The notes under the pieces: model-generated
What the model was told of the DNA's origin: nothing
What the model saw: the letters and a program-made list of their open reading frames with translations, nothing else
Databases searched by the model: none
NCBI GenBank assembly: GCA_963718585.1
Contig: OY970357.1
Coordinates: 960,001-992,000, forward strand
Direction: 5' to 3'
DNA from: Candidatus Saccharimonadota bacterium
GTDB lineage: Bacteria > Patescibacteriota > Patescibacteriia > 2-12-FULL-60-25
DNA: 32,000 bases
Program-made: the position numbers and the translations under genes
Shown here: positions 1 to 14,926 of the stretch, piece after piece
How positions within the stretch are numbered: the first letter of the stretch is position 1
How the letters are laid out: each line of letters opens with the position of its first letter

Positions 1-1123
1 CGAGGACCGCCGTGCCGTAGAGTGCCAACAGGATGAATGGGACTGCGAGGAGCTTGCGCACCCCATTGCCCCAGATCACCGCAGCGAGCGCTCCCAACAG
101 GACCGTCCCACAGATCATGGCCAGCGTCTCAGCGCTCGTCAGTTGATGGATCCAGTTGAGCCCATCATGGAACCCGCCGAGAATGGACAAGGTCCCGAGC
201 TGGAGATCCCTGAAGAGGACATCCACGAACTGCTCCGCGTCCGGAATGAAGATGACGAGCCCGTCGAACCCTAGCAGGACGAAGCACAGGACCTCGAAGT
301 AGGCCGCCGACTTTCGACGGCGCTCCGACGTATCCACGCCTTCGGATTCGAGATTCCCCCACGCCATGGCCGTGACAGCCGCGACGATGAAGGAGAACCC
401 GAGGACCACCGGGTACGGCATGAGGATCCCAAGGGCGATGACCGGATAGAGCGCGCGATTGATCTTGCGCTTCCCGTTCTTGACCCACGGCACCCACCGT
501 TCCTGGTCGGCGATGTTCACGTCGGGGAGGGGCTTCTTGTCCTTGGTGACCCAGTTCATGGCGAACCGGACCACCACGTTCGAGCTCCCCTCAGCCAGGT
601 CGATACCCAGCGCCGCCAAACGAGCCATGACCTCCAATGTCGCGAAAACGATGTCTCGCGCCATGAAGAGGAACAAGGCCCCGATGACAGCATGCGCACG
701 ATTGTGTGCTGCAACGCCTCCGACGAACTCCCACAGTCCGAAAACTGCGAAAGAGAGCACCGGAATCGTCAAAAGGGGCGATAGGCGAAACTCCTCACGA
801 GGCCGCAGACGATTGACGAGGACAGCGATGACCCCGACGACCGCAATGAGCACCGAGACGAGGATGACCCACCACGTGCCACTGACGCAGCTCAGCACGA
901 CTCCGACGGCGAGCAAGAGGGCAACGAGCACGGAGAGTGTCCTGAGAACGGGAACGACCGTCTCGTACCAGACATCCCGCATGATCTCGCTGACATTCTC
1001 TGCAGTCTCTCCGAGCCGGTTACGGATCGCTGTCAGGACCACTCCGAATCCGAAGTGGTTGGCTGCGGCGACGAAAACGACAAACGCGACGATCGCCGCG
1101 ATGCTAACGAGGATCAGATGCAT
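1..1123 (-). CDS. Multi-pass integral membrane protein, unknown function; partial (C-terminal end lies beyond the window start)
   Basis: Absent from the supplied ORF track because it has no in-window stop. My own translation of the minus strand from ATG 1123..1121 reads MHLILVSIAAIVAFVVFVAAANHFGFGVVLTAIRNRLGETAENVSEIMRDVWYETVVPVLRTLSVLVALLLAVGVVLSCVSGTWWVILVSVLIAVVGVIAVLVNRLRP... I checked every in-frame triplet down to nt 2 and found no stop (at least 374 codons). Several 20-40 aa hydrophobic stretches look like TM helices. It starts 3 nt after the stop of the upstream CDS (1127), so it is probably co-transcribed. No family recognised. Confidence 0.7.
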   Translation of the reverse strand, partial: MHLILVSIAAIVAFVVFVAAANHFGFGVVLTAIRNRLGETAENVSEIMRDVWYETVVPVLRTLSVLVALLLAVGVVLSCVSGTWWVILVSVLIAVVGVIAVLVNRLRPREEFRLSPLLTIPVLSFAVFGLWEFVGGVAAHNRAHAVIGALFLFMARDIVFATLEVMARLAALGIDLAEGSSNVVVRFAMNWVTKDKKPLPDVNIADQERWVPWVKNGKRKINRALYPVIALGILMPYPVVLGFSFIVAAVTAMAWGNLESEGVDTSERRRKSAAYFEVLCFVLLGFDGLVIFIPDAEQFVDVLFRDLQLGTLSILGGFHDGLNWIHQLTSAETLAMICGTVLLGALAAVIWGNGVRKLLAVPFILLALYGTAVL

Positions 1124-1126
1124 CTC

Positions 1127-2050
1127 TTACCACCTCTTCTTCTTGTTGAGTTCGATGCGCGCACGGCGCGCTTGACGTCGTTGTTCCGCGGCAGTTGGCG
1201 TGCCGCCCGCCTGTGCAGGTGCACCTTGGGCAGCTTCCGCCGCTTGTTTCATACCTGGATCTATCATCTCGGCGATCGCTTGCGCATTCGCGGCAGGATT
1301 TTCCAAGAAATCCTTGAGGGACTTCTCCGCCTTTGGCACGATCGCATGCGTGATGCGCTTGCCGATGTTGAGGATCGAGCCGAGACTCGCGGGAGCGGTA
1401 GGCGGCTTCCCGTACAGTGCCTCGAGATAGCTGAGGCGCTGATCATTCTCCTGGGCGATGAAGGCCGAGAGGGCGATCATGTCATTGAGCTTCGGCCGGT
1501 AGAAGTCGAACTTCTTCCGGTCGTCTGCGCTCAAGCCACCGAGCCACACCAGCAGACGCTGGCGATCCGTAGCCGCAAGACGCGGAACAAGCTGAGCGAA
1601 CGTGAACTTACTCATCCGAGCCCCGAGATTTCCCTGGACCTGGACGAGGGCTTTATCCACGTCGTTTTCGGTCAACCTGCCACGCTGGACATAGCCCTGG
1701 CGTACACCTTCGATGAGATCGTCGAGCGCCTCATCGATGATGCCGTTGACCTCGGGCGGCAACCCGGCTTGTCGAAGATACTTCTTCAGGACTTCCGGGT
1801 TCTGGATCCAGGCTGCTAGAGCCGGGAATACCATGCCGCTCACCGTTGCTTTGCCGAACGCGGTCTCGAGGAACCCGGTGAGGGTCGAGACCCAGCCGAT
1901 GTCAAAGCCGCGACGACCGATGTCGTTCGAGATCATGCTGACGAAGTTCTTGAACATCCGCCAACTGAACTTACTATCCGACGCGACGTCGATCACTTTG
2001 GGATTGTTTCCCTTCCGCCTGTTACCGTCGGAAGGCGTGGTATCTGCCAT
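1127..2050 (-). CDS. Hypothetical protein, 307 aa, no recognisable family
   Basis: ORF track 1127..2050. The ATG is preceded by GGAGAAGGA (SD-like) 6 nt upstream and by a consensus promoter at 2156..2184. No TM segment. The sequence looks helical, with a basic tail (...AAEQRRQARRARIELNKKKRW). Confidence 0.65.
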   Translation of the reverse strand: MADTTPSDGNRRKGNNPKVIDVASDSKFSWRMFKNFVSMISNDIGRRGFDIGWVSTLTGFLETAFGKATVSGMVFPALAAWIQNPEVLKKYLRQAGLPPEVNGIIDEALDDLIEGVRQGYVQRGRLTENDVDKALVQVQGNLGARMSKFTFAQLVPRLAATDRQRLLVWLGGLSADDRKKFDFYRPKLNDMIALSAFIAQENDQRLSYLEALYGKPPTAPASLGSILNIGKRITHAIVPKAEKSLKDFLENPAANAQAIAEMIDPGMKQAAEAAQGAPAQAGGTPTAAEQRRQARRARIELNKKKRW

Positions 2051-2155
2051 TACGTATCCTTCTCCCCAGATGTGGGGGTTTTGAGTGTTTATAAACTGTC
2101 GAAGGGCTGTTCCCGGGGTTCAGGTCCGTAGATCTGATACGCCAAAGAACGTATG

Positions 2156-2184
2156 AATATAGCACAAATATGCCATTTTGTCAA
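2156..2184 (-). promoter_or_regulatory. Sigma70-type promoter: -35 TTGACA (2184..2179), 17-nt spacer, -10 TATATT (2161..2156)
   Basis: Read directly on the minus strand: TTGACAAAATGGCATATTTGTGCTATATT. It sits 9 nt downstream of the GT2 stop codon and about 100 nt upstream of the 307-aa CDS start. Confidence 0.7.
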
Positions 2185-2193
2185 TGGAGGTAC

Positions 2194-2940
2194 TTACATC
2201 TTTTTCGCTGTATTGAGCCGAAAAAGACGGTACCGTATTTTGGCTAAACCCAGCAGAAAATCCCACCCATCTCGCCAAATGAGCAACGCACTCCGACGGG
2301 CCGGATCCCGATGCTCCACCCATTGGACCGGGATCTCCCGGATGTTCAGCTCTGCGGCATTGGCCAATGCTAAGAGCTCGGTATCGAATAACCACCCATT
2401 CTCCTGGCACGTCGGGAGGAGTTGTGCGGCCGCATGACGTGAAATGGCTTTGAACCCGCATTGAGCATCTTGGACCGGGAGCCGGAGGATGCTCCGTTGA
2501 AGCACCCGGTATAAACGGGACAGAACCTCCCGATGTGCCCTTCGTTTGGTCCGTGCGCCTGACACGAAGCGCGACCCGCAAACGACATCCGCGTCTCCGG
2601 ATCGAATGGGCTCGATCAGGTCCGACAATGCCCCGAGGTCCGCGGCAAGATCCGCGTCCATGAACACAAGAATGTCCGCCCCATCCACATGCGCCATCCA
2701 TGAAGTTCGGATCGCGCGCCCTTTCCCCGCATCAGGGATCTGTCTGAGGTAGAGGTCTGATTCGATCCACTGGAGTGCTTGGACGATATCGGCCGTTCGA
2801 TCTGTGCTGCCATTGTCTACGACCTCGATCCGGACCGCGTCATCAGGAAGGCGTTGGAGGATGGCATCATGCAAGATCTCAAGTGAACGACGGATGATCG
2901 TCGCTTCGTTCCAGACGGGGAGGGTGATGAGGATGCGCAT
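2194..2940 (-). CDS. Family-2 glycosyltransferase (GT-A fold), polyprenol-phosphate sugar synthase-like (DPM1/GtrB-like)
   Basis: ORF track, 248 aa. N-terminus MRILITLPVWNEATIIRRSLEILHDA...VVDNGSTDRTADIV and the FMDADLAADL (DxD) motif are typical of GT2 enzymes. Its start is 3 nt after the stop of the GT-C gene. Confidence 0.8.
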   Translation of the reverse strand: MRILITLPVWNEATIIRRSLEILHDAILQRLPDDAVRIEVVDNGSTDRTADIVQALQWIESDLYLRQIPDAGKGRAIRTSWMAHVDGADILVFMDADLAADLGALSDLIEPIRSGDADVVCGSRFVSGARTKRRAHREVLSRLYRVLQRSILRLPVQDAQCGFKAISRHAAAQLLPTCQENGWLFDTELLALANAAELNIREIPVQWVEHRDPARRSALLIWRDGWDFLLGLAKIRYRLFRLNTAKKM

Positions 2941-2943
2941 GGA

Positions 2944-4530
2944 TCAATTCGGGGGTACATGGTTCGTCGATGACGCAGTGACGAGAAAGGCCGCGCTATC
3001 TGTGGCGTCTGCGATCCGCACATACCGCGGATCTTGGAGGATCCGATCCAAGAAGACCTGATGATGTGCTTTGCTCACAAAGACGAAACGCGCATGCAGT
3101 CCATCATGGATGAGCGCCCAGGTCTGATCTTGGGTCGACGTTGAAAGATCCCATGTCACATCGCGGACCTGATCAGACAACGTCGATGATGCGACAAAGA
3201 GAAACGTCGGGTCCAGTCCGGAAACGTACCGGAGACGATCGTCCGCCGCAAACAGAGGGGGAAATTCATCCCAATCTGTATGGAAGACGCGATCTCCGGG
3301 TCGCGCACGTTCTGAGATGGCGTCCATGCTCACCTGGTAGACCGTGTCCGGGTATCGGATGGGATGAAACGATCGCCAAAGGATCTCCACCTGCCTTCCG
3401 AGGAGCAACAGGACGGCACTGACCACCGCGCTCACCATGAACCAACGAAGGACCGGTTGCATGGAACTGAGCATCTTTTGATAGGAATCCCGAAATCGCT
3501 GCACGTCGACCAATGACCAGATCGCTGCGGTCCAGATGGCCGCGACCGGGATCAAATACTCGATGGATCGTTGGCTTTTCAGGGTCAGGGCGAGAAAGAC
3601 AGCGACGACCCAACCGAATGATGCGACGAACCGCGCGATCTCCGATGCGAATGGCCGACGTGGTGCAAGCGCGATGCCTGCGCATCCAAGGATCAAAAGG
3701 AGGAGCCAAGGGGCGGTCATGACGACGAGCTGACCCGGACCGATCGGCAGCCACTCGGACCCAAGGACCACGTGACCGTACGGCGTCCCAAGGCCGATGG
3801 TCACGATCTGTGTCCATGAGAGTTTGAAGATGTTCAGAGCATTGGGATGCGCAAGAAGACCGACGACTCCGCCGACCAAGACCGACCCGATCTCGCGCCA
3901 ACGCGTTTGGACGACAGCCCGCCTCAATGGAACGTTCTCGACGATCATCTCATACAGAACATCCCCAAAAGTAAGCAGGATGGCGGCTCCGGCGAGAAAC
4001 GGCCAGCCCGCATACGAAAAAGCGAAGGCAGATCCAACGAGACCGGACAAGACCCAACGCCGCTTCCACACGGCGAGGATGCCGAGCAAGAACCAGATGA
4101 GCGCCAGCGGAGTCGCCTTCCCGATGGTGAGACGAAAGAGGAACGGTTCTGAAAAAAGAAGGACCGCGACCCACAACAATGCATATCGAAAACGAAGACG
4201 ACGGACAACAAGATCGAAGACCGTGAGACAGAGCCCGACGAGGACCACTGAGGCGATCCGTGATCCATTGAACAGCCCAAAAACCGCGGTAAACGGTGCG
4301 ACGAAAAGATGGAAACCGAAATGGAGGTCTGCGAAGGTCTGACCAAAAGAGGTCAGATCCAGCCATGGAAAGCTCTTCAGGGGCCCATGCGCCCAGATGA
4401 GCGCCGCCATCTTCGCATGATAGAACGCATCCGGGTCCGCAAAACCCGTCCACGAAATGAAGAGGGACGCCCACGCCGACGCCACTGCCCAGATCCCAAT
4501 GGATCGCTTCCACGTCTTCAACCAGCTCAT
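2944..4530 (-). CDS. GT-C superfamily integral-membrane glycosyltransferase (ArnT/PMT/STT3-like), 528 aa
   Basis: ORF track 2944..4566, whose first codon is GTG. I prefer ATG at 4530 (MSWLKTWKRSIGIWAVASAW...). Roughly 12 hydrophobic segments are followed by a ~130-aa soluble C-terminal domain. An acidic first-loop motif ADPDAFYH lies at 4417..4440, and TDWDEF at 3262..3279. Pairing with a GT2 gene is the classic lipid-carrier glycosylation arrangement. Confidence 0.6.
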   Translation of the reverse strand: MSWLKTWKRSIGIWAVASAWASLFISWTGFADPDAFYHAKMAALIWAHGPLKSFPWLDLTSFGQTFADLHFGFHLFVAPFTAVFGLFNGSRIASVVLVGLCLTVFDLVVRRLRFRYALLWVAVLLFSEPFLFRLTIGKATPLALIWFLLGILAVWKRRWVLSGLVGSAFAFSYAGWPFLAGAAILLTFGDVLYEMIVENVPLRRAVVQTRWREIGSVLVGGVVGLLAHPNALNIFKLSWTQIVTIGLGTPYGHVVLGSEWLPIGPGQLVVMTAPWLLLLILGCAGIALAPRRPFASEIARFVASFGWVVAVFLALTLKSQRSIEYLIPVAAIWTAAIWSLVDVQRFRDSYQKMLSSMQPVLRWFMVSAVVSAVLLLLGRQVEILWRSFHPIRYPDTVYQVSMDAISERARPGDRVFHTDWDEFPPLFAADDRLRYVSGLDPTFLFVASSTLSDQVRDVTWDLSTSTQDQTWALIHDGLHARFVFVSKAHHQVFLDRILQDPRYVRIADATDSAAFLVTASSTNHVPPN

Positions 4531-4569
4531 TCCATCGAGCGTATCACGCGAACCCGGAGATAACACAAT

Positions 4570-4615
4570 CCCCCGGACATGCCGGGGGATCGTCTGTTCG
4601 TTGCGCAGCGAACGG
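4570..4615 (-). terminator. Two stem-loops between the pilin-like array and the GT-C gene; possible terminator or attenuator
   Basis: Minus strand, directly after the TAG stop at 4618: CGTTCG-ctgcgcaa-CGAAC (4596..4613), then CCCCCGG-catgt-CCGGGGG (4570..4588), followed by ATTGTGTTAT. There is no clean U-tract, so this is weak as an intrinsic terminator. Confidence 0.35.
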
Positions 4616-4617
4616 TA

Positions 4618-5004
4618 CTATTGTGTCGCGTTGATGAGGGAACCGAGGACGAAGTTGGAGATGGCGAAAGCCGCGACGATCACGACCAGCCCGATGATGG
4701 ACTGACGAATGATGTTCTGCGCCTTTTCGACATTCCCCTTCTCGCCTTGCGCGGTCATCCAAAGGAACCCGGCATAGATGAGAAGAACCAGGAAAACGAT
4801 GCCGAGGAACCCGAGGAGAACGTTGATGATATTCCCGATGATCGCAGGAAGGCTGGTCTGTGTCCCGACGCCAGCATTCTGCTGGACCGTCTTGATATCG
4901 TTCAGACCGCGCCCGAGTGCGCCACCGGATTGGGCGAATGCCGCGAACGGGGCGAATGCCGCGGCCGCGAGCCCAAGCCAATAGGTTTTCTTCAGGAGCT
5001 TCAT
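4618..5004 (-). CDS. TrbC/VirB2-like (T4SS-pilin-like) small membrane protein, paralogue 1 (128 aa)
   Basis: The ORF track ORF starts at a TTG (5058) that overlaps the upstream gene. ATG at 5004 gives MKLLKKTYWLGLAAAAFAPFAAFA/QS, a classic signal peptide. The C-terminal half, IIGNIINVLLGFLGIVFLVLLIYAGFLWMTAQGEKGNVEKAQNIIRQSIIGLVVIVAAFAISNFV, is two TM helices around a short polar loop. That is the VirB2/TrbC pilin layout. Confidence 0.75.
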   Translation of the reverse strand: MKLLKKTYWLGLAAAAFAPFAAFAQSGGALGRGLNDIKTVQQNAGVGTQTSLPAIIGNIINVLLGFLGIVFLVLLIYAGFLWMTAQGEKGNVEKAQNIIRQSIIGLVVIVAAFAISNFVLGSLINATQ

Positions 5005-5041
5005 AGGAGTGATAAGTGAATCTGCACGAATAGTCTCTGCG

Positions 5042-5461
5042 TTAGGCACCCGGGGCAATAGCGGTACTCAGACGATCGATCACCGTATATGCGATGGCAT
5101 TGGCCGTGACGATGATCACGAGACCGATGACGGCATTACGGATCGTCGCGACTGCTTTATCGACCTTCCCTTTATCACCACCCGCCGTCATCCAGAGGAA
5201 CCCCCCGTACACGAGGTATCCGAGGAGCAGGATGCCGAGGAACGAGATCAGCACATTGAGGATATTCCCAATGATGGCTGGCAGCTGATCTGCCGACGCC
5301 GGTTGAGCTCCGTATCCAGCGGCTGCGGCATTCAAGCCGGATTGGATGCGCGACGTTACGCTCTGTGCCGAAGCCGGGAGCGCAAACACGAGGACCGCAC
5401 TGGCGATGATGCCGGTGCAGACCGTGGCGTGGAAAAAAGAAGTGATACGCGTTGCCTTCAT
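5042..5461 (-). CDS. TrbC/VirB2-like (T4SS-pilin-like) small membrane protein, paralogue 2 (139 aa)
   Basis: ATG start. Signal peptide ...VLVFALPASA/QS. Conserved core IIGNILNVLISFLGILLLGYLVYGGFLWMTAGGDKGKVDKAVATIRNAVIGLVIIVTANAIAY. Confidence 0.8.
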   Translation of the reverse strand: MKATRITSFFHATVCTGIIASAVLVFALPASAQSVTSRIQSGLNAAAAGYGAQPASADQLPAIIGNILNVLISFLGILLLGYLVYGGFLWMTAGGDKGKVDKAVATIRNAVIGLVIIVTANAIAYTVIDRLSTAIAPGA

Positions 5462-5467
5462 ACATGT

Positions 5468-5489
5468 GGGAAGGACCGATGTCCTTCCC
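5468..5489 (-). other. Perfect 9-bp stem-loop (GGGAAGGAC-nnnn-GTCCTTCCC) in the paralogue 3 / paralogue 2 intercistronic gap
   Basis: Read directly. The hairpin ends 6 nt upstream of the ATG of paralogue 2 (5461). No U-tract follows it on the minus strand. Confidence 0.5.
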
Positions 5490-5501
5490 GCGATGGAATG
5501 A

Positions 5502-5894
5502 CTATGACTGGGTGGCAGTAACTAGTCGTGAGATCACGAAGCTCGTGATGGCCCACGCGGAAAGAATGATTGCGAGACCGATGATACCCGAAACAATGAG
5601 TTTGCGAGCTTCGGCTGTCTTGTCTTCGTTCCCACCGGCGATCATATACTTGAATCCGCCGAGAAGCACGATGACGACGGCGATGATCCCGAGGAATCCG
5701 AGAGCGACGTTGATGATCTGCGCGGCTGTCTGGCGGACATCGCCAGACCCGAGCTTGATCGAGGACTGAATGGCTCCGACCCCGAGGTCGTTGGCGTTAA
5801 GTGAATCCGCCTGAGCGTAAACTGGAAGTGCGACAGACAAAGCGAGACCCAAGGTCCCGATCAATCCGACGGCTTTCTTCATGCGTTGCGTCAT
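5502..5894 (-). CDS. TrbC/VirB2-like (T4SS-pilin-like) small membrane protein, paralogue 3 (130 aa)
   Basis: The ORF track start at 5915 is a TTG lying inside the sequence AAAGGAGGTGAGCATGAA. That sequence is itself a strong Shine-Dalgarno (GGAGG at 5909..5905) for ATG 5894 (MTQRMKKAVGLIGTLGLALSVALPVYA/QA). Core: QIINVALGFLGIIAVVIVLLGGFKYMIAGGNEDKTAEARKLIVSGIIGLAIILSAWAITSFV. Confidence 0.8.
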   Translation of the reverse strand: MTQRMKKAVGLIGTLGLALSVALPVYAQADSLNANDLGVGAIQSSIKLGSGDVRQTAAQIINVALGFLGIIAVVIVLLGGFKYMIAGGNEDKTAEARKLIVSGIIGLAIILSAWAITSFVISRLVTATQS

Positions 5895-5983
5895 TTCATG
5901 CTCACCTCCTTTCAATGTGGGTTACACGCGCCTGCGTGATGGGGAAAGGATACCAGACGGCCATGCACGCGTCGAGCGATCTG

Positions 5984-6370
5984 TCACGCAGCAATACCCC
6001 CGAATACACTGATGAGACTCGAGACGATGATGTATGCCCCAAGGACGATCATGATCCCGATGATGGCATTGGTCAGGGTCTTGGTCGCGGCTTTGACCTT
6101 CTGAGAATCGCCCCCGGCCGTGAGATATCGTGCTCCGCCCCAAATGAACATCAGGAGGAACAATGCGCCAATGAGGGGCAGGGCCTGGAGGATGATCCGG
6201 TTGATGAGCTGGGGCACGGACAGACCGCCAAGGGGATCCAATCCCGTGGATTTTCCGAGGGCGGCGAGATCATCCGCCGAAAGTGCCGCATTCGCCGCAG
6301 ACGGCTGGATCGCAGACGCAACAAAAGCCAAGAGGAGACCGAGGAATGTTTGTAGCCGTTGCGATGACAT
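5984..6370 (-). CDS. TrbC/VirB2-like (T4SS-pilin-like) small membrane protein, paralogue 4 (128 aa)
   Basis: ATG start. Signal peptide MSSQRLQTFLGLLLAFVASAIQPSAANA/AL. Core: LINRIILQALPLIGALFLLMFIWGGARYLTAGGDSQKVKAATKTLTNAIIGIMIVLGAYIIVS. Confidence 0.8.
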   Translation of the reverse strand: MSSQRLQTFLGLLLAFVASAIQPSAANAALSADDLAALGKSTGLDPLGGLSVPQLINRIILQALPLIGALFLLMFIWGGARYLTAGGDSQKVKAATKTLTNAIIGIMIVLGAYIIVSSLISVFGGIAA

Positions 6371-6381
6371 GGGAGGGTGGG

Positions 6382-7104
6382 TTACTTTGCTGGAGCCTGT
6401 AGGAGCAGACTGAAGTACACATTCGTGATCGTATATGCGAACAGGATAATGAGGACCCCGAGCGCCGCGTACTTCATGGTGTCCACGGACTTCTTGACGC
6501 GATCACTGCTCCCGGCCGTCATGTACATCACACCAGCGTAGAAAAAGGCGAGAAGCGCGATCGCGCCTACCATGCCGAGGAACGCCAAAATAATACGATT
6601 GATCGCACCAATGATCCCGATCCCATGGAGCGGATCCGTCAGCTTGATGGGTTGGATGGCGACGTTTGAGACATCGCCGGCCTTTGACGTCACACAACAC
6701 AACGGCGTAAGCAGTTGATCCGGACAAGCTCCAGACTGAAACTCGTTACTTTTTGGATCACAGACCGTCTTACATTTTCCGCCACCCTTTTCACATGCCG
6801 TCGCAGAAGCTGCGACGCCAGTCGGATTTCCCGAGGTCTTCGCACTATGTCCGGGTTGGAGCTTCTGTTTCGTACAGCATACTCCTCCGATAGGATGTAG
6901 CGGATATGAAGGTTCACATATCCCGACCTCCTGCTCACCTGCACTTTCATCGCACGAAAAATCACAGCTGCCGGCGTTGAGATTTATGCAATCATCACGC
7001 GTTAATGCGAGTGCGCGATGTACGGGTTGGACGACCCCATACAACCCGACAACGATGCTGACGAAGAGCAATGCGCGTATGGGCCGAATAAGATGACGTG
7101 ACAT
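6382..7104 (-). CDS. TrbC/VirB2-like membrane protein, paralogue 5, with a duplicated 6-Cys N-terminal ectodomain (240 aa)
   Basis: The ORF track ORF extends to 7218, overlapping the upstream gene. ATG 7104 (MSRHLIRPIRALLFVSIVVG...) lies 5 nt after the upstream stop. The mature N-terminus carries two copies of C-x6/7-C-x3-C-x11-C-x8/12-CC (6694..6990). The C-terminus has the family core IIGAINRIILAFLGMVGAIALLAFFYAGVMYMTAGSSDRVKKSVDTMKYAALGVLIILFAYTITN. Confidence 0.75.
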   Translation of the reverse strand: MSRHLIRPIRALLFVSIVVGLYGVVQPVHRALALTRDDCINLNAGSCDFSCDESAGEQEVGICEPSYPLHPIGGVCCTKQKLQPGHSAKTSGNPTGVAASATACEKGGGKCKTVCDPKSNEFQSGACPDQLLTPLCCVTSKAGDVSNVAIQPIKLTDPLHGIGIIGAINRIILAFLGMVGAIALLAFFYAGVMYMTAGSSDRVKKSVDTMKYAALGVLIILFAYTITNVYFSLLLQAPAK

Positions 7105-7109
7105 ACCGT

Positions 7110-7682
7110 TCAAAATAAAAGCGCAGTGACCACGTACCGCACGATGGTCCAGGCCGCGAGCACGATCCCCATGCCGATCATGGCGCCGACCATGGACTTC
7201 GTCCCCTTTTGCACCCAACTGCTCCGTCCAAAGGAGAGGAGATACATGGCCCCGCCATAGATGAACGTGGCAAAGAAGATCGCACCTGAAAGCGTGATCA
7301 GGAGGTTTGCGAACGAGATACCCGTTGCGATGATGTCATCCAGTGAGCAGGTACCGGTTTGGAGACACTTTGCGGGAATGCTGATCGAGAATGGAACGTT
7401 CGTACTCTGCGTCGGCGTGGCTTGCGTCGAAAGAATGACACAACAGACCTGTCCTGCGGCCTGGCACTGCACGGACGCGGAATCGACCGTCGCCGTGTCA
7501 GAACCCGTCGCAGAACACTGGGAAGCGGACGGCACGCATGTCGCGCTCTTGATCGTATATCCGGCAGGCGGCTGTTGGGTCGGCGTGCACGCAGCCGCAA
7601 GCGCGGAAACGGGAAAGAGCAAGGCAGACAAGACCGCTGCGGCGGCCCACGTCTTCCCCGTTGTCCCGAAACGCTTCGTCAT
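7110..7682 (-). CDS. TrbC/VirB2-like membrane protein, paralogue 6, with a Cys-rich, Thr/Ser/Gln-rich ectodomain (190 aa)
   Basis: The ATG lies 2 nt after the stop of the solute-binding protein gene. Signal peptide ...AAAAVLSALLFPVSALA/AA. Ectodomain Cys pattern is C-x16-C-x6-C-x16-C-x6-CC, then C-x5-C (7347..7589). The C-terminal two-TM core (ISFANLLITLSGAIFFATFIYGGAMYLLSFGRSSWVQKGTKSMVGAMIGMGIVLAAWTIV) is more diverged. Confidence 0.7.
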   Translation of the reverse strand: MTKRFGTTGKTWAAAAVLSALLFPVSALAAACTPTQQPPAGYTIKSATCVPSASQCSATGSDTATVDSASVQCQAAGQVCCVILSTQATPTQSTNVPFSISIPAKCLQTGTCSLDDIIATGISFANLLITLSGAIFFATFIYGGAMYLLSFGRSSWVQKGTKSMVGAMIGMGIVLAAWTIVRYVVTALLF

Positions 7683-7684
7683 AC

Positions 7685-9109
7685 TCAGAGTCCGTATGGG
7701 ACCGTCTGCGCGATCACGTCAGATGCAGCCTTGATCACTTTTCCGATATCTTCGGGCGGGACGGTCAATGCCGTGTCGATCATATGCACGAACGCGTCAT
7801 CCGCGGTCTTGGGATCATTCCCGCGATACCAGGACTGCGACGTCAGGACCTGCGATGCGAACACGCCCGCGTCTTCCGAATCAAGCTGGGCTGGCAGCAA
7901 CTGCTTGAGTGCCGCGGCGCGTTGCACATAATCCACATACTTCTTCGCCTCCTCCGGCTGACTGATGAAATTGATGAAATTCCACGCGACGTCCGGGTTC
8001 GCGGTCTTCTTCGAAACGGTCCACGCCCAGTAGTTCGCGAAGTTCACCACCGGATTGCCGGCGATCTGCGGAAGCTTGGCGATCCCAAGGTTCAACTTGG
8101 GCGCCTGTGCGCGTATCACGGGCAGGTCATATCCATACCCGAAGAAGAATGCGACCTTCCCCTCGATGAATGCCTGTAGCGAATTGGGCATGGTGTTGTT
8201 CCAAGTGTATACATCCTTCCCAGGATTCGCGAAATCCGTATAGAACTGTAGCGCCTGGTACGACGGCGGCGTATCACGCTGGCCTGAGAGACTCGCCGGG
8301 ATCGCGGAAAAGGTCGGCGTCCCGTCATCCGCGCTCATCACCGCGCCGTTCTGCATCATCAATGCTGAAATGATGTCCGGCGAACGTTCGATGTTCGCGC
8401 CGGTCCCGAGTGCGGCGCCCGCTTGTTGGATATCTCCATTCGGACCATAGGCGACGAGCTTTTTCACCGCTTCCTGGAAGGTATCCCACGTTTCCGGGAC
8501 CGTCGCGATGCCCGCCGTGTTCAACAGATCCTTATTCACGAACATGCCAAGCGTATCGACCGAGAGCGGGATGGCCATGATCCGCGGCTGGATATCGCGC
8601 TTGCTCGGATCCGTCGAAACATCGATGTTCCGGATCATGTCCTTGATGACCACGTCCGGATACGCATTCTTGAAATCACGCTGTGTGATCGTCGGCTCGA
8701 CGGACAATTGGTAGGAGACGGACTTCTTGAGTGTTCCGGTCACGACCTGCACCGCGACCTTCGTGGATGCCGGCATGGGAAAGATCTTCGGTTCGTACTT
8801 GGTGACCCACGTGTTGTGGATGAGGAAGACATCCGGACCACGGTCCTCTGCAAGCGCATTCACGAGTTCGTTCTCATAATCCTCCAAACGGAAGCGCCGA
8901 TACTGGAGCGTCACGTTCGGATGGAGAAGGTGATAATCCTTCAGGAGCGCGTCATACGCATCCTGATCATCGTTCACGCCCCAGATCGTGAGCGTGACCG
9001 GTTTTGACGCGGCGACAGTGGCCGCATCCGGCCCCTTCGTGCATCCAGCACCGACGACGGCCAGCGCGAGGATCGCGGCGGTCAAACGGACAAAAAGACC
9101 CCGATTCAT
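7685..9109 (-). CDS. Extracellular solute-binding lipoprotein (ABC-transporter SBP family 1-like, sugar-type), 474 aa
   Basis: Signal peptide plus lipobox: MNRGLFVRLTAAILALAVVGAG/CTKG. Length and motifs (TLTIWGVNDD..., ...FFFGYGYDLP...) are typical of family-1 SBPs. No permease or ATPase gene is adjacent in this window. Confidence 0.75.
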   Translation of the reverse strand: MNRGLFVRLTAAILALAVVGAGCTKGPDAATVAASKPVTLTIWGVNDDQDAYDALLKDYHLLHPNVTLQYRRFRLEDYENELVNALAEDRGPDVFLIHNTWVTKYEPKIFPMPASTKVAVQVVTGTLKKSVSYQLSVEPTITQRDFKNAYPDVVIKDMIRNIDVSTDPSKRDIQPRIMAIPLSVDTLGMFVNKDLLNTAGIATVPETWDTFQEAVKKLVAYGPNGDIQQAGAALGTGANIERSPDIISALMMQNGAVMSADDGTPTFSAIPASLSGQRDTPPSYQALQFYTDFANPGKDVYTWNNTMPNSLQAFIEGKVAFFFGYGYDLPVIRAQAPKLNLGIAKLPQIAGNPVVNFANYWAWTVSKKTANPDVAWNFINFISQPEEAKKYVDYVQRAAALKQLLPAQLDSEDAGVFASQVLTSQSWYRGNDPKTADDAFVHMIDTALTVPPEDIGKVIKAASDVIAQTVPYGL

Positions 9110-9131
9110 ATCGGGGCCATTGTACCTCGGA

Positions 9132-10010
9132 TCAACGTCGTTTGGCGAGCCGCCGGACGAGTGAACGTACGCCGGGTGCCATGTCGGGACGCTTCATCGC
9201 GAATTGGATGTTGGCTTCGAGCCAGCCGAGCTTCGAACCCGTGTCATGATATGTTCCGTCGATCTCACAGGCATAGACGGGCCGGCGTTTCATCAACTGA
9301 TGGATCGCATCAAGCGTGACGTATTCCCCTTTATGACCGGGCTTGAGCCGTCGGATCTCATCGAAGATATCCGGCGTGAGGATATATCCGCCGTTCGCCG
9401 CCAAACGTGTCGGTGCCTTTTTCGGTCCCGGTTTCTCGATCACGTTCTTCAACTGATAGACACGCTTTTCGACCTTGGCCGCCGGATCGATGATGCCATA
9501 TCGTTTCGTCCCCTCGGCATCGACCTTGACCACGCCCATCACCGGATCACGATACTTTTCATACACGTCGATCATCTGTCTGAGTCGCGGGACTTTGCAA
9601 TCAAAGACATCATCGCCGAACACGACGGCGAATGGTTCATCGCCGATCAAGTGCGCAGCATTCAAGACCGGTGTCGCGTTGCCGTACGGTCCCTTTTGTC
9701 GGATGTAGACGAAGTTCGCGAGCTGGCTGATCCCTCGGATCCGTTCAAGGAGGTCCTTTTTCTTTTGCTTTTGCAGCCAATCCTCCAATTCCGGATTGAC
9801 GTCGAAGTGATCCTCGACCGGACGCTTCGCATGACTTGTGACGAGGATGATGTCCGTGATGCCGGATGCGACCGCTTCCTCCACCACATACTGGATGATC
9901 GGCGTATCGATGATCGGCAGCATCTCCTTAGGCATCGCCTTGGTCTCCGGGAGAAAACGCGTCCCTAGACCGGCGACCGGGATGACGACTTTGCGAACGG
10001 TTTGTGTCAT
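9132..10010 (-). CDS. galU: UTP--glucose-1-phosphate uridylyltransferase
   Basis: From ATG 10010: MTQTVRKVVIPVAGLGTRFLPETKAMPKEMLPIIDTPIIQYVVEEAVASGI..., the canonical GalU N-terminal signature. The ORF-track start at 10055 adds 15 non-conserved residues. Confidence 0.9.
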   Translation of the reverse strand: MTQTVRKVVIPVAGLGTRFLPETKAMPKEMLPIIDTPIIQYVVEEAVASGITDIILVTSHAKRPVEDHFDVNPELEDWLQKQKKKDLLERIRGISQLANFVYIRQKGPYGNATPVLNAAHLIGDEPFAVVFGDDVFDCKVPRLRQMIDVYEKYRDPVMGVVKVDAEGTKRYGIIDPAAKVEKRVYQLKNVIEKPGPKKAPTRLAANGGYILTPDIFDEIRRLKPGHKGEYVTLDAIHQLMKRRPVYACEIDGTYHDTGSKLGWLEANIQFAMKRPDMAPGVRSLVRRLAKRR

Positions 10011-10019
10011 AGCAGAAGG

Positions 10020-10025
10020 AGTATA
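10020..10025 (-). promoter_or_regulatory. Candidate -10 box TATACT, 9 nt upstream of the galU ATG
   Basis: Minus strand: ...GGTCAATGGGTCTATACTCCTTCTGCTATG. The -35 is weak (TTTCCG). The same hexamer recurs upstream of two other genes (14849, 17434). Confidence 0.35.
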
Positions 10026-10247
10026 GACCCATTGACCAGGAACGGAAACGGACACGCTGTCGTCTTACGCAAAAAACATCCTCTTGATCGCGATGAGATG
10101 CGGCAGATGCCGTATCAGGTGAGACGTACGCGGTTCATTGACCCGATGATATACGACGGGCTGGAACGAACACCACGCAAGACGTACTGGATCGTACGAC
10201 GAAGAGTCAGATCACGAAGTCTAAACAGATCCTAAGACCGTGACCCG

Positions 10248-11339
10248 TTACGCGCCAACGCGGAAGTGGCACGTATCCCCGTCCCGCATCACATACTCCT
10301 TGCCCTCGATACGCGTGAGGCCTTTCTCGCGGCATCCGACCTCGCCGTATTGCGCAAAATCCTTCCAATCCGTGACCTCTGCGCGGATGAACGTCTTTTC
10401 AAAATCACTATGGATGACCCCTGCAGCTTCCGGCGCCTTCGCCCCTTTCACGACCGTCCACGCGCGCGTCTCCTTTTCTCCGCTCGTCAGGAACGTGATG
10501 AGTCCGAGGACGTCATACGCTTCAGTGATCAACCGATCGAGCCCGGAGGACGTCTGTCCGAGTGCGGACAGATACTCCTTTTTCTCTTCCGCATCCATAG
10601 AAGCAAGCTCTGCCTCCATCTTCACGCAGACCGGCACCACGCGCACGCCTGGCTTTTCCAACAAATGAGTCACCCTTGCTTCCCACGTTCCATCCTGCAA
10701 CTGCCCCTCACTCACATTCACGACATACAGCATGGACTTCATCGTCAGGAGCTGTAACTGCGCGAGTTCCTTCTGTTCCTCATCGGTCCAAACAAGGTCA
10801 CGTAGAGCGGTCCCCTGCCCCAACGCGGCTTTCGCGCGCTCGAGCGCGGCCTGTAGGATCTCAAGCTCTTTCGTCTTTCCGGACTTGAGCTGTTTTACGA
10901 CCGACTCCGAGCGTTTCGTGACCGTATCGAGGTCCGCGAGCGCCAACTCGATCCCGATGGTCTCCGCATCACGCTCCGGATCGATCGACGAGTCGACATG
11001 GATGACATTCGGGTCCTCGAAGGCGCGCAGGACCTGCGCGATCGCATCACAGGCACGGATATGGGAAAGGAATTTGTTGCCCAGCCCCTGACCTTCGGAT
11101 GCGCCTTTCACCAAACCGGCGATATCCACGAATTCGATGGTCGTCGGGATGATCTTTTCCGACTTCGAGACCTTTGCGAGCGTCACGAGGCGTTCATCCG
11201 GGACCTCGACCACGCCCACATTTGGATCAATGGTGCAGAATGGGAAATTCGCGCAGTCCACGGCCTTCTTGGTGATCGCCGAAAACAACGTGGACTTTCC
11301 CACGTTCGGCAATCCGACGATCCCGATCTGAAGTGGCAT
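10248..11339 (-). CDS. ychF: Ribosome-binding ATPase YchF (Obg-like GTPase/ATPase family)
   Basis: 363 aa. [24 protein letters not shown]... P-loop, a typical length, and the C-terminal TGS-like ...[23 protein letters not shown]. Confidence 0.92.
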
Positions 11340-11343
11340 GTGA

Positions 11344-11703
11344 TTACAATTCCTTTCCGTGGAATTTCGTGACGTTCAATGTCTCCGGATCAACATCATC
11401 GAGACAGCGGACGTTGATGGAGACGATCGGTTCTCCTTTATCATTCGCGCCTTCGCCGAACGACGCCACGCCGCAAGTGGAACAAAAAAGATGATGGATG
11501 CGTTTTATATTGAACTGATAATCGGTCAGGCTCTCGCGCCCCGACAACAGCGTGAATGAGTCCGCAGGCACGAATGTCAGAAGATATCCCTTCTTCGCGC
11601 AGTGCGAACAATCGCATTCAATGACCCGAGAGAGATCCGTCGTGACCTCATAGCGGACCGCTCCACAGTGACACCCGCCCGTATAGGTTTTGGACTCTGA
11701 CAT
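11344..11703 (-). CDS. GFA / CENP-V family protein (glutathione-dependent formaldehyde-activating enzyme-like, Cys-rich zinc site)
   Basis: 119 aa. Contains GGCHCGAVRYEV...CDCSHCAKKG...HHLFCSTCG, which is the GFA-domain Cys pattern. Its stop is 4 nt before the ychF start. Confidence 0.8.
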   Translation of the reverse strand: MSESKTYTGGCHCGAVRYEVTTDLSRVIECDCSHCAKKGYLLTFVPADSFTLLSGRESLTDYQFNIKRIHHLFCSTCGVASFGEGANDKGEPIVSINVRCLDDVDPETLNVTKFHGKEL

Positions 11704-11760
11704 ATGGTCGTGAGCGTACCCGGAAACCCACTTTTCGACAAGACTTCGCTTATTTCAGCC

Positions 11761-11825
11761 AAAATTGAAAAAAGGAGTGATCATCTCACAGATCGCTAAT
11801 TATGTCAAGTATTATATTTACAAAA
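11761..11825. promoter_or_regulatory. AT-rich divergent promoter patch between the GFA gene (-) and the ABC-F gene (+)
   Basis: Minus strand: TTGACA (11808..11803), 17 nt, GATGAT (11785..11780). There is also a perfect TATAAT (11816..11811). Plus strand: TATATT (11813..11818) and TTGAAA (11765..11770). This is the only strongly AT-rich stretch in the 200-nt divergent spacer. The exact boxes in use are uncertain. Confidence 0.4.
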
Positions 11826-11904
11826 GTGCCCTAAAACGGTCATGGTCCGCGGGTGTCTCGTACGATCCGCGTTCATGGGGTACCTTGCTCTCCACGAATA
11901 CCCT

Positions 11905-13914: not shown

Positions 13915-13933
13915 ATGGTGGACCCTAACGGTC
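13915..13933. repeat. 19-bp direct repeat, copy 2 (within and abutting the genuine tRNA-Ala 3' end)
   Basis: Identical to 13719..13737. Confidence 0.85.
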
Positions 13934-13991
13934 TCGAACCGTTGACCTCTTCCATGCCATGGAAGCGCTCTACCAGCTGAGCTAAGGGCCC
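13916..13991 (-). tRNA. tRNA-Ala: tRNA-Ala, anticodon GGC, CCA encoded
   Basis: The reverse complement, GGGCCCTTAGCTCAGCTGGTAGAGCGCTTCCATGGCATGGAAGAGGTCAACGGTTCGAGACCGTTAGGGTCCACCA, folds by hand into a full cloverleaf. Acceptor stem is 7 bp with the G3:U70 Ala identity pair. D stem GCTC/GAGC. Anticodon stem CTTCC/GGAAG with loop AT-GGC-AT. T stem AACGG/CCGTT with loop TTCGAGA. Discriminator A73. Confidence 0.95.
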
Positions 13992-14031: not shown

Positions 14032-14841
14032 TCAACGGAGCTCTTGCATCGAAACGGCGTACGCCACACGATCGCGCACGACCTTTGCCTCCCGATCTCG
14101 ACGCTTCAATTCCGTGTGCAGGTCGCGCAGATGGCGGACCTGGACCAATGCATCCTCATCCACCGCCTCAGCCGGCATCGCATGCCAGCGCTCTGCTTCC
14201 CGTGTCGCTTCACGGATGGCAGACAAGAGATGTTCGATGTCCACATCAGGGATCGGTTCGATGTCTGGATGATCGAACACGCGTTCGCGAGAAGCGTTCT
14301 GACGAACGACCTCATCTCCCGTGAGCAACATCGCCGGATCAGAGATATCCCTCGAACGGATGACGACCGGCTCCGGCGTGGAAGCCGATACCGGGGGCTG
14401 GATCCCGCGCGTCCGGAGCTCCGACCGAAGGATCTCCGCTCGCACAGATGGATGATCGGCATGGACCGGACCGTCGTCGCTTCGCTCTTCCCACCGACCC
14501 AACTCCCGCGTCAATTCTCCGGCAGTCTTGAATGAGACATCGATCCGGCGGAGGGCGCGGCGCAGCGCATCCTGGGCGTCCCGGATCGCCGCAGCTTCCC
14601 GCGCGACATCGTCCGGTTCCATGTCATGGACGCGCGTCGCGAGATCTCGCAAACGGAGATCATACGCTTCGAATGCCTGCTCGATCTCCTCAGCAAGGGC
14701 CGCCTGATCGGCGGCGAGCATTTGACGCGCTGCATCCGGGTCCGCTTCGCACAACGTCACGAACGCCACGGGATCGAATGCTCGCGGACCGGTCGTGGGT
14801 CGACCGCTGAACCAGCGGCCAAGTCGTTGAAACCAAGACAT
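14032..14841 (-). CDS. Hypothetical acidic, Arg/Glu/Asp/Ala-rich, probably coiled-coil protein (269 aa)
   Basis: Longest ORF in this region (track 14032..14910). I prefer ATG 14841 (MSWFQRLGRWFSGRP...), which sits 7 nt downstream of a TGTTATACT extended -10 box. Overlapping plus-strand ORFs translate to low-quality sequence. No family recognised. The call rests on ORF length and promoter context only. Confidence 0.5.
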   Translation of the reverse strand: MSWFQRLGRWFSGRPTTGPRAFDPVAFVTLCEADPDAARQMLAADQAALAEEIEQAFEAYDLRLRDLATRVHDMEPDDVAREAAAIRDAQDALRRALRRIDVSFKTAGELTRELGRWEERSDDGPVHADHPSVRAEILRSELRTRGIQPPVSASTPEPVVIRSRDISDPAMLLTGDEVVRQNASRERVFDHPDIEPIPDVDIEHLLSAIREATREAERWHAMPAEAVDEDALVQVRHLRDLHTELKRRDREAKVVRDRVAYAVSMQELR

Positions 14842-14848
14842 TGTGGAG

Positions 14849-14857
14849 AGTATAACA
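14849..14857 (-). promoter_or_regulatory. Extended -10 promoter element TGTTATACT, 7 nt upstream of ATG 14841 (implies a leaderless or near-leaderless mRNA)
   Basis: Minus strand: ...GGCGTCAGGATGTTATACTCTCCACAATG. The same 9-mer occurs at 17434..17442. Confidence 0.5.
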
Positions 14858-14879
14858 TCCTGACGCCCATCTGATGATG

Positions 14880-14906: not shown

Positions 14907-14926
14907 TCAAATATCACGATCGGTCC

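Follow-up and report, generated by a model that had tools for sequence, protein, structure and literature searches.

Six diverged VirB2-like pilin genes in the operon of a solute-binding lipoprotein, and their recurrent glycosyltransferase neighbours, in Patescibacteria of class ABY1

The DNA analysed in this paper, hereafter called the window, is a stretch of 32,000 nucleotides (nt) from a Patescibacteria genome (positions 960,001 to 992,000 of the 1,084,458-bp contig OY970357.1, assembly GCA_963718585.1), and it encodes on its minus strand six consecutive VirB2-like pilins, i.e. small membrane proteins of the T4SS_pilin family (PF18895) that are related to the pilins of type IV secretion systems (T4SSs). 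The array follows directly upon the gene of a sugar-type solute-binding protein (SBP), a lipoprotein, and this pairing is conserved across the related species that we have compared. In addition, each of the six paralogues keeps its own orthologue at the same rank of the related arrays, and one of them alone, pilin D, possesses a canonical Shine-Dalgarno site. The explanation towards which we lean, with slightly more confidence than doubt, is that six anciently diverged and non-redundant VirB2-like pilins build a heteromeric filament or stalk of the T4SS kind, with pilin D as its major subunit; a VirB4-type machine with genes at some other place of the genome would likely carry out the assembly.

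Tandem arrays of diverged VirB2-like pilins are already known in Patescibacteria, and a specialist will find the array of the window in itself unsurprising. What appears to be new is the SBP-pilin operon, the positional orthology of the paralogues, the single Shine-Dalgarno-bearing member, and the recurrent neighbourhood of a membrane glycosyltransferase of the GT-C type and a glycosyltransferase of family 2 (GT2). The first three of these are distinctive features of the locus which had been overlooked in an earlier, first-pass annotation of the same DNA. In the searchable literature we have found no report of positional orthology or of a single Shine-Dalgarno-bearing member in Patescibacteria arrays, and nothing relevant on a link between an SBP and VirB2, or between a pilin and an oligosaccharyltransferase, in this group.

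The closest orthologues of the window genes are those of Candidatus Uhrbacteria (68% for the SBP), and further ones are found in Falkowbacteria, Magasanikbacteria and Kerfeldbacteria; all four groups belong to the class ABY1 of Patescibacteria (Table S1, PMC12102498). Our sample of related loci, numbered below with the prefix L, consists of the surroundings of the SBP orthologue in 80 species-level genomes, in which pilin genes were found by a hidden Markov model (HMM) made from the pilins of the window together with homologous sequences. The pairing of SBP and pilin genes was counted over those 71 loci whose sequence continues for at least 600 nt past the SBP gene, and the array size over the 48 loci in which it continues for at least 8 kb.

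Six tandem genes of the T4SS_pilin family

The six pilin genes, with coordinates taken from their ATG starts, are as follows (aa, amino acids; ORF, open reading frame; E, E-value).

7682-7110, minus strand: pilin A, 190 aa; PF18895 E 1.5e-6, 28.6 bits
7104-6382, minus strand: pilin B, 240 aa; PF18895 E 1.3e-5, 25.6 bits (scored as an over-long 278-aa ORF)
6370-5984, minus strand: pilin C, 128 aa; PF18895 E 1.5e-11, 44.6 bits
5894-5502, minus strand: pilin D, 130 aa; PF18895 E 1.2e-10; candidate major subunit
5461-5042, minus strand: pilin E, 139 aa; PF18895 E 2.1e-10
5004-4618, minus strand: pilin F, 128 aa; last of the array; PF18895 E 1.2e-8; C-terminal tail ...LINATQ

The intergenic gaps from A to F measure 5, 11, 89, 40 and 37 nt, and both the ORFs and their spacing agree exactly with the six minus-strand genes that the first-pass annotation had described. 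That annotation had also assigned the products to a VirB2-like family, which the HMM search bears out, since all six match PF18895 (E 1.3e-5 to 1.5e-11) and five of them score above its gathering score of 26.6 bits (28.6-44.6 bits); pilin B falls one bit short of this cutoff, and is matched at E 1e-22 by a custom HMM of the family. Six family matches in a row on one strand are far beyond chance. Furthermore, the same six products have been called independently on a Logan metagenome contig, where the precomputed PF18895 calls agree with ours, and the homologues of pilin E, where they are named at all, carry the annotation "pilin [Patescibacteria group bacterium]".

Hydropathy analysis revealed two C-terminal hydrophobic helices in all six proteins and an N-terminal hydrophobic segment in five of them, the N-terminus of pilin F being alanine-rich and signal-like, ending in AFA-Q, and lying below the hydropathy threshold. 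The conserved core in our alignments, ..GFLG......GGF.WMTAGG...K........IGL.I, spans a short basic loop and agrees with the C-terminal motif noticed before; core identity among the six window paralogues ranges from 27 to 60%. In the AlphaFold2 model, pilin E is a helix-loop-helix hairpin with helices at residues 59-92 and 97-135. The topology proposed in the first-pass annotation therefore stands as far as the two C-terminal helices around a short basic loop are concerned, and the cleavage of a signal peptide, which it had likewise listed, is a putative feature consistent with the hydropathy profiles.

To compare the family with genuine VirB2/TrbC pilins, a profile of 50 pilin-family sequences was aligned by hhalign with a profile of seven genuine MPF_T VirB2/TrbC plasmid proteins, which gave a probability of 77% and an E of 2e-5 over 59 columns, in register through helix 1, loop and helix 2, although hydrophobic hairpins can align by composition. 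Profile similarity to VirB2/TrbC, without which the earlier proposal was to be given up, is supported by this alignment. In addition, pilins B, D and E match the NCBIfam model NF045849 over 68-72 of its 80 positions (29-36 bits against a cutoff of 40; E 6.5e-7 to 4.7e-9). These profile comparisons make the name "VirB2-like" well supported at the family level, and structure and function are not thereby proven. We have also considered DctQ as a possible link between the pilins and the SBP, and have rejected it, as the Pfam matches are weak and below threshold and the pilins are compositionally hydrophobic; the tripartite ATP-independent periplasmic (TRAP) systems to which DctQ belongs use an SBP family different from SBP_bac_1.

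Paralogues of stable rank and a single Shine-Dalgarno site

Each pilin of the window is the reciprocal-best match of a pilin at the same rank in the arrays of ~12 species. The orthologue of pilin A stands at rank 1 and that of pilin F at the last rank in 12/12 related arrays, the orthologue of pilin B is found at rank 2 in most of them, and pilin C has positional orthologues as well. As each paralogue thus keeps a same-rank orthologue across ~12 species, we conclude that the paralogues are old and individually maintained.

They also differ in their translation signals and in their degree of conservation, the following site being the only canonical Shine-Dalgarno sequence in front of a member of the array.

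5912-5902, minus strand: Shine-Dalgarno site AAAGGAGGTGA; its GGAGG core ends 10 nt ahead of the ATG of pilin D

A GGAGG-type site at positions -18 to -7 precedes all 12 of the orthologues of pilin D, versus only one of the 53 orthologues at the other five positions. The identity to positional orthologues is 69-85% for pilin D, over the whole mature protein, versus 33-65% for the other five. Because pilin D combines the sole Shine-Dalgarno site with the highest conservation, we read it from these sequence features as probably the major and abundant subunit, and the other five as probably minor ones.

The first two pilins are further distinguished by cysteine-rich modules, which roughly follow the pattern C-x(4-8)-C-x3-C-x(8-14)-C-x(6-14)-CC. 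The N-terminal ectodomain of pilin B contains two such 6-Cys modules with a terminal CC, and pilin A has one, together with a C-x5-C loop just before the first helix that is kept in first-position pilins. The module, which has no match in Pfam, was counted 82 times in 45 of 317 pilins, where it sits at the N-terminal or at the C-terminal extracellular end, and its copy number varies from 0 to 6 among the orthologues of the first two pilins. Copies are also seen in the related loci L003, L014-L017, L020, L050 and L057.

The operon with the solute-binding lipoprotein

From 11703 down to 1127 all genes of the window lie on the minus strand, in the order GFA-family protein, YchF, GalU-like protein, SBP_bac_1 lipoprotein, six pilins, 528-aa membrane protein, GT2 and a soluble 307-aa protein. 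The gene immediately preceding the array is the following.

9109-7685, minus strand: SBP_bac_1 sugar-type solute-binding lipoprotein; Pfam E 2.8e-31; N-terminus ...LAVVGAGC

Its nearest relatives of solved structure are oligosaccharide and maltose binding proteins (PDB, E 1.8e-13 and weaker), and its stop codon lies 2 nt ahead of the ATG of pilin A. Judging from this arrangement, the array would share one transcript with the SBP lipoprotein gene, to which it is probably coupled in translation too, and for this reason the pilins and the lipoprotein are expected to act jointly on the cell surface. In 66 of the 71 species loci the SBP orthologue has a pilin gene as its very next same-strand neighbour downstream, the median of the gaps being 7 nt, and this pairing spans Uhrbacteria, Falkowbacteria and other ABY1 lineages; in the five exceptions the pilin gene is truly absent at that place. 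The SBP-pilin pair is therefore the conserved core of the locus. Genes for an ABC permease or ATPase beside the SBP gene were found neither in the window nor among the recurrent neighbours of ~80 related loci. A binding protein serving a conjugation-type system has a precedent in PrgZ of pCF10, which belongs to a different SBP family.

Around this core the size of the array varies. Among the 48 loci, 32 have at least three pilin genes (31 of these at least five, and up to 15), 13 have one, and three have none. The closest dozen species keep the order YchF, GalU, SBP, five to eight pilins, GT-C, (GT2) and the 307-aa protein. In the Falkowbacteria-type loci, on the other hand, the SBP gene is followed by one pilin gene, then by a few genes that include an inverted GT2 gene and one for a 537-aa membrane protein, and then by six pilin genes. 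Between the SBP-pilin pair and the six-pilin array of such loci (L038, 12946-13329, and 22 others) there is also a conserved 127-aa protein without a Pfam match, which adjoins an HTH_25 protein and a methyltransferase. Larger arrays are found in other ABY1 lineages, with 15 pilin genes in L060 (11350-18881), 11 in L071 (3550-9461) and 10 in L084 (11370-16113); in L084, seven of the pilin genes run opposite to the SBP gene, and there are two tandem copies of the GT-C gene.

Genes of a putative sugar pathway on both sides of the operon

The first-pass annotation had placed the array between a solute-binding lipoprotein and glycosyltransferases. The location holds, with a GalU-like gene to be added upstream and with the downstream genes now assigned to a GT-C protein, by predicted fold, and a GT2. 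The features concerned are the following.

10055-9132, minus strand: GalU-like UTP-glucose-1-phosphate uridylyltransferase; Pfam NTP_transferase E 6.8e-29; directly upstream of the SBP gene
4567-4591, minus strand: hairpin of 10 bp, rich in G+C, within the 87 nt between pilin F and the GT-C gene; the fold of 4620-4567 has -23.5 kcal/mol and a z-score of -3.0
4530-2944, minus strand: GT-C polytopic membrane protein, 528 aa; AlphaFold2 pLDDT 93.4, pTM 0.92; predicted STT3/AglB/PglB/DPY19-like fold
2940-2194, minus strand: GT2 of the polyprenyl-phosphate-sugar synthase type; Pfam Glycos_transf_2 E 2.8e-21; 3 nt downstream of the GT-C gene
2050-1127, minus strand: soluble conserved 307-aa protein; no Pfam or NCBIfam match and no hydrophobic segment; follows the GT-C and GT2 genes

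The GalU-like protein matches NCBIfam TIGR01099 (galU) at E 4.6e-94 with 314.8 bits, the cutoff being 326.8, and in 22 related loci its gene immediately precedes the SBP orthologue. For the 528-aa protein, sequence and profile searches returned no match in Pfam, NCBIfam or the PDB sequences, and no Pfam match was found in eight further members of its family either. Its AlphaFold2 model, when searched with Foldseek, had human STT3A as its top PDB match (6s7o_A, E 9.4e-9, TM-score 0.65), followed by STT3B, yeast Stt3, AglB, DPY19, PglB, ALG9/12 and AftD; all 17 matches at E<=1e-3 are GT-C enzymes. Based on these best matches, we assign the protein by fold to the GT-C enzymes of the protein-glycosylating type. 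In an alignment of 47 sequences of the family, D32-P-D34, Y37 and H38 are invariant, and a C-terminal WDEFP is conserved. The family comprises at least 3174 cluster representatives (E<=1e-3), and those homologues that we list as P0078-P0332 are called "hypothetical" in their sources, apart from one labelled "Stt3" by JGI.

The best NCBIfam matches of the GT2, all of them below cutoff, are PpgS, AglJ, PgfS, a Dol-P-hexose transferase and ArnC, and its best PDB match is the dolichol-phosphate mannose synthase of Pyrococcus (5mlz, E 2.9e-8). As this gene adjoins that of the GT-C protein, the sugar donor would be a monophosphate-linked single sugar rather than a diphosphate-linked oligosaccharide. 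GalU, GT2 and GT-C together could plausibly form a route of three steps, which would begin with glucose-1-phosphate and end with the transfer of a sugar on the external side of the membrane. The gene of the 307-aa protein is syntenic in L002, L007-L010, L014 and L017, and its product may be part of the putative glycosylation module.

A GT-C gene was found within 10 kb in 21 of the 32 array-bearing loci versus one of the 13 single-pilin loci (Fisher p 6e-4, uncorrected for phylogeny), and its pairing with the array survives inversions and insertions (L028/L029-type loci, L046, L060, L070 and L084). The 537-aa protein of the Falkowbacteria-type loci was identified as a very distant GT-C homologue when a 12-member profile was used (hhalign 91.6%, E 8e-7), a relationship to which single-sequence hhalign against the GT-C profile assigned a probability of <1%. 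The D-P-D motif is common to these distant homologues and to the 528-aa family, and it may correspond to the acidic catalytic motif of the first extracytoplasmic loop, which in STT3 is a DxD. Moreover, when GT-C homologues of 32-36% identity were taken as the starting point, SBP-pilin arrays were found alongside again. In L099, a DUF2079 membrane protein and two GT2 genes hold the place of the GT-C gene beside the array; we have rejected the DUF2079 protein as a GT-C homologue, since it has no homology to the GT-C profile and represents an independent family.

As to the hairpin between pilin F and the GT-C gene, its T-run is weak and a consensus terminator scan did not call it; as a predicted fold it may mark the end or an attenuation of the pilin transcript. 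A scan of 1000-11800 for promoter and terminator consensus sequences gave counts that were not clearly above those of shuffled sequences. The C-terminal tails of the pilins were also inspected for glycosylation sequons. The orthologues of pilin F have N-[AV]-[TS] at 2-4 residues from the C-terminus in 11 of 12 species (L002-L020), a possible sequon beside an STT3-like gene, and this tail of the last-position pilins may be plain sequence conservation. The N-glycosylation sequon was dropped as a general argument, because the pilin C-termini are not enriched in it.

Secretion genes in the window and in related loci

The first-pass annotation had reported that no gene for VirB4, VirB6, VirD4 or a relaxase occurs in the 32 kb, and none was detected by us in the ORFs of the window or in the 3.8 kb beyond its left end. 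The recurrent neighbours in the related loci are SMC, ComM, RecA, GroEL, YraN and an HTH_25 protein, and no recurrent cluster is a T4SS component. Among the large unclassified ORFs with a Walker A motif in ~80 loci we recognised FtsK, IF-2, a helicase, DnaA and a Big_13 (Ig-like domain) protein, and one ORF of 634 aa had no match. A phmmer search with the VirB4 of Sinorhizobium against all ORFs of 1.36 Mb of related loci gave no match, which is a weak test for a divergent VirB4 of the monoderm type. Because ~80 loci agree, the separation of the array from T4SS ATPase genes is a property of the lineage and not an artefact of window size.

The absence of machinery nearby, which the first-pass annotation had regarded as unusual, turns out to be common, as no more than 1135 of the 1948 assemblies encoding both have a pilin gene in the vicinity of virB4 (PMC12102498). 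VirB4 itself is present in 2417 of 3035 Patescibacteria assemblies (80%), and, in the accessible part of PMC12102498, in eight of the nine ABY1 rows of Table S1. Most Patescibacteria T4SSs have no relaxase (PMC12102498); the earlier suggestion that the pilins are unrelated to conjugation agrees with this current view of the Patescibacteria T4SSs, and it is a different statement from one that there is no secretion machinery. In some related pilin loci, dnaA/dnaN or the start of a ~1 Mb contig lies within 5-25 kb (L098, L051 and L086); the array of L098 occupies 8722-11159, with dnaN at 14260-15396 and dnaA at 15609-17036, and in L051 dnaA lies at 18906-20279. These loci recall an observation in the literature, according to which the T4SS genes of Patescibacteria frequently lie close to the origin.

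Proposed model and alternative explanations

In the model that we propose, which starts from the observed family membership, gene order, conservation and Shine-Dalgarno asymmetry and from the predicted GT-C fold, each pilin would be exported by Sec and seated in the membrane as a helical hairpin, whose short basic loop is placed on the cytoplasmic side on account of the positive-inside rule, so that the variable N-terminal part and the C-terminal tail would face outside. Pilin D would be highly translated and would polymerise as the body of a T4SS-type filament or membrane stalk, into which A, B, C, E and F would be incorporated in small numbers as low-abundance accessory subunits, and the disulphide-rich modules of A and B would decorate the surface of the structure. 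Assembly would most likely be carried out by a putative VirB4-type machine encoded elsewhere in the genome. We infer this link to a T4SS from precedent, namely the series of pilins in the essential T4SS cluster of Southlakia and the frequency of VirB4 among the 3035 assemblies given above. The SBP lipoprotein, made from the same message, would work with the structure at the surface, and may bind a host-derived sugar. GalU would supply UDP-glucose, the GT2 would convert it into a polyprenyl-phosphate-hexose, and the STT3-like GT-C protein would transfer the sugar outside the membrane. That this pathway glycosylates exposed parts of the pilins, or the lipoprotein, is a tentative proposal, about which we are more doubtful than confident.

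A number of observations weigh against this model. Neither in ~80 species nor in seven further contexts does the locus have a T4SS ATPase gene (VirB4 or VirD4) within 10 kb, and physical linkage to a T4SS is therefore absent throughout the lineage. Of the two pilin families that the first-pass annotation had suggested for comparison, PF18895 was matched, whereas PF04956 (TrbC) scores remain below the gathering score of 27.9 bits, the best being 18.7 bits for pilin E and 11.5 bits for pilin C, with no match in pilins A, B, D and F in the Pfam scan. A profile search of the PDB sequences with the pilin profile returned 0 matches even at E 10, a Foldseek search with the model of pilin E, a simple hairpin with the signal peptide included, returned nothing below E 1, and a two-helix hydrophobic hairpin can align with unrelated proteins through composition alone. 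To our knowledge, no pilus has yet been seen for the PF18895 family. With regard to glycosylation, an acceptor motif was not found, as N-x-S/T occurs 36 times in the last 14 residues of 301 pilins versus 33.7 expected; the hairpin that follows pilin F points to a separate transcription unit for the GT-C and GT2 genes; and the synteny statistics are not corrected for shared ancestry.

The best of the alternatives, to which we concede a chance not far short of even, is that GalU, GT2 and GT-C serve general envelope glycopolymer synthesis and are neighbours of the array through conserved gene order, the pilins not being their substrate. It would account for the lack of an enriched acceptor motif and for the hairpin that separates the array from the GT-C gene, as well as for the 11 of 32 array-bearing loci without a GT-C gene within 10 kb and for the array of L098, which has neither an SBP gene nor a GT-C gene; the 3174 GT-C cluster representatives also possibly outnumber such arrays. 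What this explanation does not lead one to expect is the persistence of the pairing, which outlasts inversions, insertions and replacement by a very distant homologue, and which is found again when one starts from distant GT-C homologues. Furthermore, the GT-C gene tracks the arrays and not the single SBP-pilin pairs (21/32 vs 1/13), and in L099 an unrelated DUF2079 membrane protein with GT2 genes has come to occupy the same place.

A second alternative, which takes up the reading of the first-pass annotation and which we consider unlikely, holds that no T4SS machinery is required, and that the hairpin proteins make up, with the orphan sugar-binding lipoprotein, a complex at the surface or in the membrane, be it a device for sugar capture and uptake or a self-assembling filament. 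The conservation of the SBP-pilin operon in 66 of 71 species while VirB4 and VirD4 are missing within 10 kb in ~80 is in its favour, and so are the lack of a permease or ATPase partner near the SBP gene and the position of the locus among housekeeping genes (SMC, RecA, GroEL, YchF and dnaA). However, the pilin family is homologous to T4SS pilins, the homologous array of Southlakia lies inside a T4SS cluster, and VirB2-type pilins are known only as proteins that are extracted and polymerised by VirB4-containing machines. VirB4 is, moreover, encoded in 80% of the Patescibacteria assemblies, and an array size of 1 to 15 genes is ill-suited to a transporter of fixed stoichiometry.

It is very unlikely, in our view, that the array maintains six interchangeable versions of one major pilin for the sake of antigenic or host-range variation, a reading which has been proposed for the VirB2 paralogues of Bartonella and Anaplasma and which the literature suggests for Patescibacteria arrays (PMC12102498), and with which the strong divergence of the paralogues (27-60% core identity) and the widely varying number of Cys-rich modules between orthologues of the first two pilins would agree. 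Each paralogue has a same-rank orthologue across ~12 species, and the Shine-Dalgarno site is found at one position only, which points to genes with fixed and different roles; in addition, no repeat-mediated cassette structure was seen, though no search was aimed at one. Finally, the idea that the pilins are generic small two-helix membrane proteins (holin-like, or accessory subunits of transporters) whose Pfam match reflects hydrophobic composition, to which the weak Pfam matches of some members to DctQ, FixQ and cytochrome bd subunit II and the uninformative fold search with pilin E might point, is highly improbable in view of the five members above the curated PF18895 threshold, the motif GGF.WMTAGG conserved in and around the loop and not in the helices alone, the match to an independent NCBIfam model of a conjugation pilin-like protein, and the in-register profile-profile alignment to VirB2.

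Other genes of the window

Three further features look like ordinary housekeeping content.

13916-13991, minus strand: tRNA-Ala(GGC)
11842-13686, plus strand: ABC-F type ATPase with two ABC domains and no membrane domain
11344-11703, minus strand: GFA-family protein

An ORF of 4829 aa (17488-31977, minus strand) contains at least 14 LVIVD repeats (E 7e-183) and several beta-propeller matches, and by its sequence it probably encodes a giant surface protein; the contig index has no record of this exact product. An 822-aa protein (14927-17395, minus strand), which is conserved upstream of YchF in L008-L010, shows ~11 hydrophobic segments before residue 490 and, at 646-800, TPR repeats, an architecture that recalls membrane glycosyltransferase-TPR fusions. 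The G+C content of the window, 52-61%, is high for Patescibacteria.

Implications

Patescibacteria depend on host cells, and a T4SS with a pilin series is essential in the one species tested. The predicted major subunit, pilin D, would offer a target for antibodies or cryo-electron tomography, and the conserved partner lipoprotein with its sugar-binding fold hints at what the structure senses or collects. The candidate modification pathway centres on a GT-C family which has no match in Pfam or NCBIfam and which comprises at least 3000 cluster representatives. If the pilins are indeed glycosylated, this would be, as far as we know, the first case for the VirB2 type, and if they are independent of VirB4, the way in which PF18895 genes are read in genome surveys would change; if neither holds, the locus is one more array of a catalogued kind. 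A bolder idea, to which we attach only a slim chance, is that the VirB2-like pilins of ABY1 have been uncoupled from the secretion locus, and form with the orphan SBP and the STT3-like enzyme a glycosylated filament of one major and several decorated minor subunits, possibly free of VirB4, which would capture or channel host sugars or mediate sugar-dependent attachment.

Comparison with known systems

The first-pass annotation had regarded six diverged copies in a row as unusual. This view does not hold, because 383 Patescibacteria assemblies have been reported to contain 441 arrays of 2-11 VirB2-like pilin genes, whose identity averages 25% and does not exceed 54% (PMC12102498), and because Ca. 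Southlakia epibionticum ML1 has a series of six sequence-divergent pilins, which is essential, inside its T4SS cluster; a comparable pilin array of TM7x has been named the "Sec secreted array". The array of the window shares with these its family, PF18895, and its composition of tandem, sequence-divergent and structurally similar paralogues. It differs from the Southlakia type in lying outside any T4SS cluster, with no VirB4 or VirD4 within 10 kb in ~80 species, and in being part of an SBP lipoprotein operon beside GalU, GT-C and GT2 genes. The lineage is also different, being ABY1 (Uhrbacteria-like), whereas the reported arrays are most abundant in Microgenomatia and Saccharimonadia (PMC12102498).

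With the canonical VirB2/TrbC proteins (PF04956; the T-pilin of Agrobacterium and MPF_T plasmids) the window pilins have in common a putative signal peptide, two hydrophobic helices and a short loop. However, the loop is ~7 residues longer in the window family, the ectodomains are long and variable, some of them with Cys-rich modules, the host has a single membrane, and no virB3 or virB4 adjoins the array, while every plasmid copy examined adjoins virB3. Several diverged VirB2 genes in a row, linked to antigenic or host-interaction variation, also occur in Bartonella and Anaplasma (cited in PMC12102498), from which the window copies differ by their stable same-rank orthologues and one strong ribosome-binding site. 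The Mbov_0395 family of the integrative and conjugative elements of Mycoplasma (NF045849) is likewise a T4SS-associated two-helix protein of a monoderm, but the window proteins score under its equivalog cutoff of 40, and the gene of the Mycoplasma protein belongs to a mobile element. The window array, in contrast, is chromosomal, lies among housekeeping genes and is conserved across species.

The 528-aa protein resembles STT3/AglB/PglB and DPY19 in its predicted fold (E 9.4e-9 to 1e-5, TM-score 0.50-0.65), and has a small C-terminal alpha/beta domain as well as the invariant D-P-D..YH near the N-terminus as a candidate catalytic motif. It differs from these enzymes in being much shorter, in having WDEFP instead of WWDYG, and in the absence of a sequence-level match to Pfam STT3. 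Glycosylation of a pilin or adhesin by enzymes encoded beside their substrate is known from the type IV pilin systems TfpW, PilO and PglL, from Pgf of Streptococcus mutans and from the actinobacterial Ppm1/Pmt. The locus of the window would follow the same logic, with a GT2 of the polyprenyl-phosphate-sugar-synthase type and a GT-C enzyme beside genes for subunits of a putative surface filament; it differs from these systems in that the filament subunits are VirB2-like and not type IV pilins, that the GT-C family is one without a Pfam model, and that the acceptor is putative.

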